From IMG/VR virus record IMGVR_UViG_2636415500_000004: 12,758 nucleotides of DNA; one strand, 5' to 3'. The notes beneath the pieces are model-generated. The model made no database searches and was not told the origin of the DNA. It was given only the letters and a program-made list of their open reading frames with translations. Shown one piece after another: positions 2,858-11,239 of this stretch. Within the stretch, counting starts at the first letter, position 1. Every line of letters starts with the position of its first letter. A program made the position numbers and the translations under genes. The stretch comes from a virus (taxonomy: Duplodnaviria > Heunggongvirae > Uroviricota > Caudoviricetes).

Positions 2858-3138
2858 GAGATTGTGGTGCTTTTTGTGGGAGTCATCCACTTACGCACTT
2901 TGTTTTGCCATGCCAGCAGTTAGCTTCTGCTGTAAAACTATTCATGCAGCAAACCTGCACTTCACCACAATGGTTAGCATACTTTTCCTGATTAAGATTT
3001 TGCCAAATATGCTAGCCATTGTTTCATGTATTGGACCTCCTTACTTTTTATTAAAGAGATCCAATATTCACTACTCTGTCCGTATCTCTACTCAGGCATC
3101 AGCCTTCTTCGTTATCGTATACAGACGAGCGATGAATT

Positions 3139-3354
3139 TTAATCAGTAATGATGACATTTGCTGCTGCAGGACCTTTAGCACCACTCTCTATAGAGAAGG
3201 TAACCTTTTGACCTTCAAATAAGGTTCGATAATTATCATTCTGAATCGCAGAAAAATGCACAAACACATCTTTACTACCATCAACAGGAGAAATAAAGCC
3301 GAAACCTTTATCAGCGTTAAACCATTTTACTAAACCAGTCATTTTATTTGACAT
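3139..3354 (-). CDS. cspB: Cold-shock protein, CspA family (71 aa)
   Basis: [38 protein letters not shown]... with cold-shock domain motifs. Long upstream leader. Divergent from cspF. Confidence 0.93.
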
Positions 3355-3560
3355 TCTACATTCCTTAACTTGAGCCTTTCGGCATAAATGGTTTGCATAA
3401 CAGAAACGACTTCGTACTTAATTGGAGAGACTCAAAGAAGGAATAAGTGAATAACACCTGAAATGAGAACTGCTTTAGTAAACTACTTCGTATATCGTCT
3501 GTTCTTCAAACCGACGCAATCATTAACGCATAGTTGAACATATGAAGCAATGTTTATTTT
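3355..3560 (-). promoter_or_regulatory. cspB promoter and long 5' leader (about 160 nt)
   Basis: Minus strand has GCGTTAATG (candidate -10 at 3522-3527) followed by GGTTTGAAGAACAGACG, resembling the cspA cold-box region GGTTTGACGTACAGA. Confidence 0.55.
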
Positions 3561-3654: not shown

Positions 3655-3867
3655 TTGTCCCGTAAAATGACAGGAATTGTCAAAACCTTTGACGGCAAAA
3701 GCGGCAAGGGTCTTATCACCCCATCCGATGGTCGTATCGATGTCCAGCTTCATGTTTCAGCGCTCAATCTCCGCGATGCAGAAGAAATTACCACCGGATT
3801 ACGCGTGGAATTTTGCCGGATAAATGGTCTGCGTGGCCCTTCAGCTGCCAATGTTTACCTTTCATGA
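3655..3867 (+). CDS. cspF: Cold-shock domain protein, divergent CspF/CspH-type (70 aa), probable TTG start
   Basis: [27 protein letters not shown]...[21 protein letters not shown] is 6 nt before TTG at 3655; the first ATG (3667) has no RBS. Short leader, unlike cspB and cspI. Confidence 0.88.
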
Positions 3868-3921
3868 GCTATATTAAAGCTTTAATTTCAGGCCCCATCG
3901 GATCACACATGGAGAGTTTTT

Positions 3922-4011
3922 ATGAATAACCCCGTCTGTCTTGATGACTGGTTGATTGGCTTTAAAAGCTTATGCTGTACTTTGGCCGTAATAGCTCTGC
4001 TAATAATATAA
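3922..4011 (+). CDS. Candidate small hydrophobic protein (29 aa), [29 protein letters not shown]
   Basis: ATG preceded by GGAGAG with 7-nt spacing; one TM-like hydrophobic C-terminal segment. Lies 55 nt downstream of cspF on the same strand, before the terminator at 4153-4185. Confidence 0.35.
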
Positions 4012-4152
4012 TAAGCAGACTCATTGTGTTTAGGGACATTGTACTGGAAGAAAACATTTTAAACATCAGGCAAATAACCAAGTCACCAGCTAAATAATAA
4101 GTTAACAGACATGAGTCCCGGGATGAGATTCAACATTACCATTGCCCCATTT

Positions 4153-4185
4153 AAAGCACAAAACCCGCTCATCAGCGGGTTTTCT
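4153..4185. terminator. Bidirectional intrinsic terminator; on the minus strand a candidate tR'-like late terminator
   Basis: CCCGCT-CATC-AGCGGG stem with U-tracts on both sides: plus TTTTCTACTTTTTCTT, minus UUUUGUGCUUU. Confidence 0.6.
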
Positions 4186-4228
4186 ACTTTTTCTTAACGT
4201 CGGGTATACAAAGCCCATCGTTGAAAAA

Positions 4229-4257
4229 ATTTTATCCATATTTTTTGAAAAATGCAA
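4229..4257 (-). promoter_or_regulatory. Candidate late promoter (pR'-like) just downstream of the Q-like gene
   Basis: Minus strand TTGCAT (4252-4257), 17-nt spacer, TAAAAT (4229-4234). Sits about 35 nt after the quuQ stop and about 45 nt before the terminator at 4153-4180. Confidence 0.4.
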
Positions 4258-4288
4258 ACATCATGTCGCCATCTTCAGCAAAAATCAT

Positions 4289-5041
4289 TTATCTCGTCAC
4301 CTTCCTCAATTGCGCTTCCGCGTATGCTTCTTCCTGCCAGCACTTTGTTACCAGTTTACCAATGACGTCCGCATACCCCTTATACCACTGATAATCGGTC
4401 AGGTCTGGTACCAGCTTCTGGACATGACGTCGTGCCAGCGTGGTCGGTAAACGACTAAACCGGTTTCCATTACAACGCCCACAAATCTTATATACCGGTA
4501 CGCCATGAAACCGGGTTCTTTTTTCATCCAGAACAATCCCTTTACCCTTACACCCTCTGCACGCTGTGCTGGCTTCGCCCTTACCATGGCAATGCTGACA
4601 TAGTTCCTTCACCCATTCTTCCTTGATTACAGATTCCCCGCGTCTGTAGTGTTTCACCACTTCGCGCAATACATTATAAAATCCCGTACCTGAACAATGC
4701 TCACAGCGAGCCTTACTTGCCGCAGACCTGGAGTAATCAGCAAAGGCAAAACTCACGAGGTAAGGAATAATCTGTAACCGGATTTCTTCACTCAATTTGT
4801 TCAATGTCGGGTTATCCAGTGCCATCGCGTAATTTAGCAGGCCTTCAATCGCAAACTGAGGGTCCTGAACACCAACTTTTGCCAGAAATAAGGCCAACCC
4901 AAGTGGTGCTTTCGACTGCACCATCCCCTGCGCTGCCATTACATCCGTAATTGTTAAACAACCGGTGCCTGTCGCTGGAGCGTCATCGCTCAATTTTGGA
5001 GATTTTGGGGAGTAATATTTTGGTAAGGCTTCAAGGTTCAT
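4289..5041 (-). CDS. quuQ: Putative late-gene antiterminator Q-like protein (250 aa) with four CxxCxGxG zinc-finger repeats
   Basis: Start at ATG 5041 (MNLEALPK...) with RBS GGAG 7 nt upstream; the track start at 5071 would overlap ydfU. Motifs CEHCSGTG, CQHCHGKG, CRGCKGKG, CGRCNGN. Position upstream of the late promoter and lysis genes. Confidence 0.85.
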   Translation of the reverse strand: MNLEALPKYYSPKSPKLSDDAPATGTGCLTITDVMAAQGMVQSKAPLGLALFLAKVGVQDPQFAIEGLLNYAMALDNPTLNKLSEEIRLQIIPYLVSFAFADYSRSAASKARCEHCSGTGFYNVLREVVKHYRRGESVIKEEWVKELCQHCHGKGEASTACRGCKGKGIVLDEKRTRFHGVPVYKICGRCNGNRFSRLPTTLARRHVQKLVPDLTDYQWYKGYADVIGKLVTKCWQEEAYAEAQLRKVTR

Positions 5042-11181: not shown

Positions 11182-11239
11182 TTTCTGGTGACGTTTGGCG
11201 GTATCAGTTTTACTCCGTGACTGCTCTGCCGCCCTTTTT
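11182..11239 (+). ncRNA. dicF: DicF small regulatory RNA (Hfq-dependent; represses ftsZ and other targets)
   Basis: Sequence UUUCUGGUGACGUUUGGCGGUAUCAGUUUUACUCCGUGACUGCUCUGCCGCCCUUUUU matches DicF as I recall it. Ends in its own terminator hairpin (GGCGG...CCGCC + U5). Lies inside the dicB operon between ydfC and dicB. Confidence 0.85.

Follow-up and report, generated by a model that had tools for sequence, protein, structure and literature searches.

The stretch of viral DNA considered here, referred to below as the window (12,758 nucleotides), contains an open reading frame (ORF) of only 29 codons directly downstream of the cold-shock gene cspF, and the question raised by this locus is whether so short a frame is a gene and, if so, what its product may do. 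A first-pass annotation, made from the letters alone, had proposed a translated hydrophobic mini-protein with a strong ribosome-binding site and had been unable to give it a name. The window belongs to the Qin cryptic prophage of Escherichia coli K-12, the window coordinate plus 1,638,200 being equal to the NC_000913.3 coordinate, and the ORF is, base for base, ynfS (b4750). This Qin gene for a 29-aa protein is real and translated, is already known, and has been named since 2018. What is added here are orthologues in Citrobacter, the evidence for selection, and the fixed linkage of cspF and ynfS in a mobile cassette. The reading favored overall, to which a probability of roughly 60% is assigned, is that ynfS is a cassette-borne gene of a cspF-ynfS transcript and, more tentatively, that its product would be membrane-associated and act on a host membrane protein or the bilayer.

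Identity and translation of ynfS

The features of the locus are collected in Table 1. By direct reading, the frame opens with ATG at 3922, runs for 29 codons, and closes with TAA at 4009-4011, immediately followed by a second TAA; both the ORF and the well-spaced GGAGAG read by the first-pass annotation are present in the sequence. The product corresponds to YP_009518791.1 / WP_120795389.1, the latter being labeled as a 'hypothetical protein' by the NCBI pipeline in other E. coli genomes. A dedicated Pfam family of 29 positions, PF23697 'YnfS', is matched by the peptide over its full length (residues 1-29 on profile positions 1-29) with 80.9 bits (E = 4.7e-23, cutoff 27), and searches of NCBIfam, PHROGs, and PDB sequences with YnfS returned nothing usable.

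Table 1. Coordinates of the features of the cspF-ynfS locus in the window
Feature	Position	Strand	Basis or remark
cspF (b1558), cold-shock-domain protein, gene upstream of ynfS	3655..3867	+	NC_000913.3 annotation; Pfam CSD 77.8 bits
cspF-ynfS spacer, 54 nt, holding the ynfS ribosome-binding region	3868..3921	+	no terminator-like site in a scan of 3868-3921
Shine-Dalgarno GGAGAG	3911..3916	+	direct reading; 5-nt TTTTT spacer, then the ynfS ATG
ynfS (b4750) coding sequence	3922..4011	+	29 aa; identical to NC_000913.3 1642122-1642211
3' untranslated stretch, ynfS to terminator, 148 nt	4012..4159	+	variable, mosaic among prophages
Predicted bidirectional intrinsic terminator	4160..4183	both	G+C-rich 10-pair hairpin, 5 G-C pairs, T-runs on both strands

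Published experiments have established that the gene is translated. With a chromosomal SPA tag, the YnfS protein was detected in LB as one of 36 such small proteins (VanOrsdel et al. 2018, PMC6001520), whose Table 1 lists 'ynfS, cspF / ydfT, 1642122-1642211, 29 aa' with the same peptide; according to the same paper, a ribosome-profiling screen with tetracycline had also scored the gene as positive without identifying it (PMC6001520). Strong start-codon peaks were subsequently reported with both retapamulin and Onc112 (Weaver et al. 2019, bioRxiv 10.1101/511675), and the protein level was comparable to that of most newly found small proteins (10.1101/511675). Two checks suggested in the first-pass annotation, initiation-stalled profiling and a chromosomal tag, thus already have positive outcomes: the SPA tag sustains the proposal of a real translated gene with a strong ribosome-binding site downstream of cspF, and the published peaks at 3922 provide the initiation signal whose absence had been named in the first-pass annotation as a possible refutation. 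At the transcript level, ynfS is among the genes down-regulated by fluoride in a tiling array (PMC10100675), and a survey of the y-ome of E. coli from 2024 still counts it among the uncharacterized genes (PMC11551758); neither the literature nor the family searches assign a function to YnfS.

The signals for translation are consistent with these data. The GGAGAG element is kept in every E. coli and Citrobacter copy examined, while the spacer between cspF and ynfS has diverged between the two groups apart from GGAGAGTTT. The initiation region (3868-3940) is poorly structured, being less folded than its own shuffles (z = +1.56), which fits an accessible ribosome-binding site.

The 2-kb stretch around ynfS is overlapped by 41 ORFs of 20 aa or more, and a 29-codon ORF by itself means little, yet the ynfS ORF exceeds chance, because it combines a hydrophobic segment with a length, a Shine-Dalgarno sequence, and a position after cspF that are kept in Citrobacter DNA diverged beyond detection by blastn. 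Among the 58 ATG-initiated ORFs of 22-40 aa in the window, only one has a 19-residue segment with a Hessa sum at or below 0, and YnfS itself qualifies (-1.01 kcal/mol). As a discovery, the locus carries little weight, given that the gene is named, that two independent methods have demonstrated its translation, and that Pfam devotes a family to it. The case does illustrate that sequence-only reading can pick a real small gene among dozens of chance ORFs.

Annotation of the gene in isolated phages is uneven. No feature is annotated at ynfS in phage 2H10 (locus L006, 2501-2590), and in phage PhiR63_1 (L007, 2501-2590) ynfS is likewise unannotated and an overlapping 41-codon ORF in another frame is called at locus positions 2551-2676; the latter corresponds to the unconserved window ORF 3972-4097.

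Proposed transcript, terminator, and mobile cassette

The description of the hairpin beyond the ORF as a bidirectional terminator is fair, since its predicted folding is strong in both orientations: it reaches -15.1 kcal/mol on the plus strand (z = -4.0) and lies within a structure of -30.5 kcal/mol on the minus strand (z = -3.95). Such a hairpin would stop the cspF-ynfS RNA on the plus strand and any minus-strand RNA coming from downstream of ydfT (Q). A cspF-like gene lies directly upstream of ynfS in the 112 E. coli-type loci with full flanks among the matches listed, in 22 of 22 Citrobacter-type viral contigs, and in three further loci (L132, L134, and L135). Co-transcription of the two genes is plausible in view of this constant linkage and of the absence of a terminator between them, and it is considered quite likely that cspF and ynfS form, in this order, a single two-gene transcript, which would run to the bidirectional terminator and be part of a mobile cargo cassette. 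Among the segments compared, the 3' untranslated stretch is the most diverse (pi about 0.10), and it has no homology in Citrobacter; since it is mosaic and non-homologous among prophages, variability from about 4040 onward is unusable as a neutral yardstick.

In Qin, the order of genes is essQ (leftward), followed at a distance by cspB (leftward), then cspF and ynfS (rightward), the terminator, and ydfT (Q) and ydfU (both leftward), so that the direction of cspF-ynfS opposes that of phage late transcription. The cassette, with cspB and the cspF-ynfS pair pointing away from each other, would sit in lambdoid prophages with the antiterminator Q gene on one side and the lysis genes on the other, and in the lysogen it would be expressed from the opposite strand to that of the late phage genes. 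With a strand opposite to that of essQ-ydfR-rrrQ-rzpQ and no match to a holin family, ynfS does not have the features of a holin, antiholin, or spanin gene.

The RNA families of the window offer further context. Full-length leaders of the cspA thermoregulator type were found by Rfam for cspI and cspB on the minus strand (228-613 and 3123-3515), whereas no such leader was found for cspF; the DicF sRNA was located at 11183-11234 on the plus strand, and between cspF and ydfT nothing came near any gathering score. cspF is not known to be one of the cold-inducible csp genes, a view with which its lack of a leader agrees.

On the minus strand, a promoter-like site (TTTGCA-18-TAAAAT, 4258->4229) lies directly downstream of the ydfT stop codon (4289-4291), and the terminator hairpin of cspF-ynfS is situated about 45 nt past it. 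Judged from its sequence, the region 4155-4258 on this strand resembles a late promoter of lambdoid phages together with its first terminator (pR'-tR'), an arrangement that would yield an RNA of approximately 65-70 nt; Rfam returned for it just a far sub-threshold isrK-like match (16.6 bits against 50). Transcription carried by Q through the hairpin would run antisense to ynfS and cspF and then enter cspB and the lysis genes.

The locus is widespread in E. coli. At least 80% of the region 3868-4200 is present in 1,406 of 5,426 complete genomes (26%), and the 1,720 matching records comprise 1,293 that are at least 99% identical and 258 at 90-95%, the remainder being mostly partial. The region is also present in the isolated lambdoid phages 2H10, PhiR42_1, PhiR63_1, and HannyBb, where it is flanked by the Q gene on one side and the holin gene on the other. 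A scan of IMG/VR with a degenerate DNA pattern recovered at least 118 complete copies of ynfS (L008-L127), and the 118 complete copies among the matches listed represent 9 DNA haplotypes and 8 distinct translations, with one copy lacking the start codon. Short contigs of metagenome-assembled genomes labeled Mucilaginibacter sp. and Veillonella parvula (L143 and L153) carry E. coli-like cspH or cspF loci, and these labels most likely reflect binning contamination.

Several structural variants of the locus were encountered. A recurrent deletion of 258 bp (window 3857-4114), seen in L005, L152, L153, L156, and hits H70-H73, removes the end of cspF, the spacer, the whole of ynfS, and most of the 3' stretch; it brings the truncated cspF almost directly up to the terminator, and the strains concerned are natural ynfS-null strains. 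In strain CEA106S (L181, H1), an IS1 element with a 9-bp target duplication is inserted at 4014-4022, that is, 3-11 nt past the ynfS stop, and three further hits (H2-H4) share this layout, in which ynfS is intact yet cut off from the terminator. The idea that IS1 disrupts ynfS in some strains was rejected on account of this position beyond the stop codon.

Comparison of settings bears on how the gene travels. Two Citrobacter loci show a Qin-like order of holin, cspB-like gene, and cspF-ynfS, followed by a Q gene, DUF968, and RusA, and the Q families adjoining the cassette differ, being PF03589 in Qin and PF06530 in those two loci. In Citrobacter braakii ATCC 51113 (L134, 1988-5147), the cspB-like, cspF, and ynfS genes lie between genes for an NADPH-dependent FMN reductase and a GmrSD-type restriction nuclease, with no phage Q or lysis genes adjoining, which indicates that the cassette can persist outside a recognizable prophage. 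Because the same cassette occurs beside unrelated Q families and beside non-phage genes, the gene orders suggest that csp-ynfS moves as a unit, independently of the neighboring phage genes, in the manner of cargo ('moron') genes.

Orthologues and selection on the peptide

Orthologues were sought by using CspF as a handle in bacterial contigs with one genome per species and then inspecting the downstream DNA. In three Citrobacter species, a 29-codon ORF starting with ATG and preceded by GGAGAG was found 65-68 nt past the stop codon of a cspF-like gene. Its products are 52-59% identical to YnfS, the accompanying cspF-like products being 83-87% identical to CspF, and in two of the three species the similarity is no longer picked up by blastn at the DNA level. 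The Citrobacter orthologues match PF23697 with 32.3 and 37.2 bits, above the cutoff of 27. A second pattern scan yielded 22 further copies in viral contigs, all with 29 codons, the same Shine-Dalgarno sequence, and a cspF-like gene upstream, and no chance match among them; when all orthologues are taken together, the start codon lies 57-68 nt after the cspF stop. A looser scan for more clades returned the same loci and one chance match inside an unrelated ORF of 125 aa (L182). Downstream of the core paralogue cspH, no relic of ynfS was found, the homology ending with the csp coding sequence, and in Escherichia, Salmonella, Klebsiella, and Enterobacter the loci with a cspH-like gene contain neither a similar ORF nor a hydrophobic ORF at that position.

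Between clades, ynfS shows pN of 0.22-0.32 and pS of 0.57-0.97, and dN/dS is 0.16-0.33 where computable, with cspF at 0.06-0.13. With all pairs added together, the annotated frame, which is the sole stop-free frame, has a pN/pS of 0.37, versus 0.78 and 1.17 in the other two, and Fisher tests of synonymous versus nonsynonymous changes give p values between 0.03 and 6e-7. In three clades the peptide has exactly 29 residues despite synonymous sites near saturation, and 11 residues are invariant (M1, L7, D9, W10, L11, G13, K15, S16, C18, T20, and L26), 9 of them within residues 7-20. Protein-level purifying selection on YnfS between Escherichia and Citrobacter is clear, and the conservation of the frame in homologous regions, which the first-pass annotation had proposed as a check, is borne out. 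A role as a leader peptide or regulatory upstream ORF does not suit the locus, since the peptide is under purifying selection and no plus-strand gene lies between ynfS and the terminator.

Within E. coli, the pattern is different in kind. The variable ORF sites across at least 118 copies comprise 8 nonsynonymous changes, 1 synonymous change, and 1 loss of the start codon (ATG to ATA), small counts drawn from a search whose degenerate pattern itself fixed nine codons. By hand calculation, 8 nonsynonymous changes out of 9 have a probability of about 0.02 under the between-genus ratio and of about 0.35 under neutrality. The excess is taken to reflect either a loosening of constraint as the prophages decay or polymorphism that is mildly deleterious. 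The nonsynonymous excess, the loss of the start codon, and the strains with the 258-bp deletion together indicate that ynfS is dispensable, and constraint on it looks relaxed at shallow depth.

These observations bear directly on the possibility that only the act of translating ynfS matters, in cis, through protection of the 3' end of the cspF mRNA or through the spacing of ribosomes before the terminator, the peptide itself being functionless. Polymorphism that is almost entirely nonsynonymous, a copy without a start codon, the deletion of the gene in some strains, and the lack of a reported function would all agree with such a role. The comparison between genera speaks against it, however, in the low in-frame pN/pS, the invariant residues, and the fixed length, and a purely cis role would not keep the D-W-L-x-G-x-K-S-x-C-x-T block; this explanation is accordingly judged unlikely.

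Possible membrane association, rival roles, and known systems

The first-pass annotation had regarded the C-terminal half of the peptide as a plausible single transmembrane helix, and this proposal stands in one part. The hydrophobic character is sound: the last 9-13 residues are hydrophobic throughout in all clades, with no polar C-terminus, and in residues 21-29 the character is kept while the identities vary. The transmembrane helix, as predicted from sequence, is marginal. For the most favorable stretch of 19 residues (11-29), the Hessa sum is -1.0 kcal/mol in K-12 and +1.3 to +1.7 kcal/mol in the orthologues, the uninterrupted hydrophobic run covers approximately 13 residues, and K15 lies inside the segment. 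Positive charges are found solely on the N-terminal side, and W10 and K15 are typical interfacial residues. An arrangement of the conserved residues on one helix face was examined and rejected (conservation moment 0.036 versus 0.084 +/- 0.043 when permuted, P = 0.87), and for residues 6-21 as an amphipathic in-plane helix muH is 0.34-0.44, a value significant against shuffles in the Citrobacter FP75 allele and not in the other four of the five alleles.

Given the hydrophobic tail, the interfacial W10 and K15, and the confinement of positive charges to the N-terminal side, an association with the membrane, with the N-terminus inside, a buried tail, and the conserved block at the interface, is tentatively favored. 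The tail (about residues 17-29) would be buried in the membrane, and the invariant L7-x-D-W-L-x-G-x-K-S-x-C-x-T20 block would lie at the cytoplasmic membrane interface. As a protein made constitutively in normal growth, YnfS would be non-toxic at native levels and, like other small membrane proteins of E. coli, may work by binding either the bilayer or some protein of the host's inner membrane. No report of a membrane location or a partner of YnfS was found in the literature.

The marginal transmembrane score and the position of the conserved block, which falls in that half of the peptide with polar or interfacial character, would also suit a cytoplasmic YnfS that is not embedded in the membrane and that pairs with or modulates CspF or a different nucleic-acid-binding protein. 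Such a partnership would explain the strict linkage, the ynfS ORF never having been found without a cspF-like gene directly upstream in the copies examined. Linkage is expected anyway for two genes of one small operon, however, and a tail that is hydrophobic in every clade and ends without polar residues is unusual in a soluble peptide. Furthermore, the absence of a ynfS-like ORF next to the core paralogue cspH suggests that this Csp subfamily needs no such partner, which leaves the soluble-partner explanation improbable.

Little probability is likewise given to the more specific proposal that YnfS is an effector of the mobile cassette (cspB / cspF-ynfS) that sits beside a particular inner-membrane protein and changes the phenotype of the lysogen. 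Its target might be, for instance, a transporter or a phage DNA-entry factor, and the outcome would be either exclusion of a superinfecting phage in the manner of DicB or the tuning of a membrane function in step with the Csp proteins. If this were true, the excess of amino-acid polymorphism within E. coli would represent diversifying selection instead of decay; the present analysis contains no evidence of a link between YnfS and phage resistance.

It is also judged very unlikely that YnfS damages membranes in the manner of a type I toxin or a lysis peptide and is kept in check by antisense RNA or convergent late transcription: the peptide is small and hydrophobic, the same prophage carries hokD and relBE, two weak minus-strand promoter-like sites lie past the ynfS stop (4032->4005 and 4032->4003, 9/12 matches), and Q-driven late transcription from the ydfT side would be antisense to the gene, but such sites occur at chance frequency (6 found versus 3.5 +/- 2.1 expected), their sequence is altered in a second E. 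coli haplogroup and non-homologous in Citrobacter, no conserved antisense sRNA gene with a promoter was found and no Rfam sRNA came near its gathering score, the ribosome-binding site is open and not sequestered, the protein is translated and accumulates in ordinary growth, unlike tightly repressed type I toxins, no similarity to toxin or holin families was found in Pfam, NCBIfam, or PHROG, and the lysis genes are grouped at a different place, on the opposite strand. The toxin suggestion of the first-pass annotation thus finds no support, and no report of toxicity or membrane depolarization upon overexpression of YnfS was found in the literature.

The preferred reading continues to be that of a putative membrane-associated product of the proposed cspF-ynfS transcript. 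Within the K-12 'y-ome', YnfS still belongs to those small prophage proteins that are uncharacterized, and for its future study the between-genus selection, the constant company of cspF, the invariant residues, and the natural deletion and start-loss alleles provide points of departure.

Compared with known systems, the ORF of the window shows no difference from K-12 b4750 (PF23697) in coordinates, 29-aa sequence, or position between cspF and ydfT. YnfS resembles the small inner-membrane regulatory proteins AcrZ, MgrB, MgtS, and YldA of E. coli in having fewer than 50 aa, one hydrophobic segment, and a strong Shine-Dalgarno sequence, and in its detection by SPA tagging and initiation-stalled ribosome profiling. 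Its hydrophobic segment is nevertheless weaker and shorter (-1.0 to +1.7 versus -1.9 to -4.7 kcal/mol) and, unlike theirs, reaches the very C-terminus without a flanking charge, and there is no sequence similarity. With Hok, Ldr, Ibs, TisB, and ShoB, it shares the short hydrophobic peptide and the location in prophage or accessory DNA, but it differs from these type I toxins in having no conserved antisense RNA promoter, an unstructured ribosome-binding site, constitutive translation, and no family match. A precedent for the action of a Qin cargo peptide is DicB, a small protein of the same prophage for which PMC6832061 describes an action on inner-membrane proteins of the host and protection against phage; its sequence and locus are unrelated to those of YnfS.

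A further comparison concerns the layout of the cassette. In cspI-ynfQ-ynfR-ynfN and cspG-ymcF-ymcE-gnsA, as in cspF-ynfS, a csp gene is followed by one or more tiny ORFs on the same strand (cspI-ynfQ-ynfR at NC_000913.3 1638188-1638667, L002; cspG-ymcF-ymcE-gnsA at 1051461-1052240, L128), and YnfS has no sequence similarity to the products of ynfQ, ynfR, and ynfN or of ymcF, ymcE, and gnsA. A csp gene with trailing small ORFs thus seems to be a recurring cassette design. Among the small proteins of such cassettes, YnfR is cold-induced (PMC6001520), and the content of unsaturated fatty acids is reported to rise when GnsA or GnsB is overexpressed (10.1101/2024.03.27.586906 and its references 26 and 27). 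The latter effect points, as a lead from context, to a membrane theme for csp-linked small genes.
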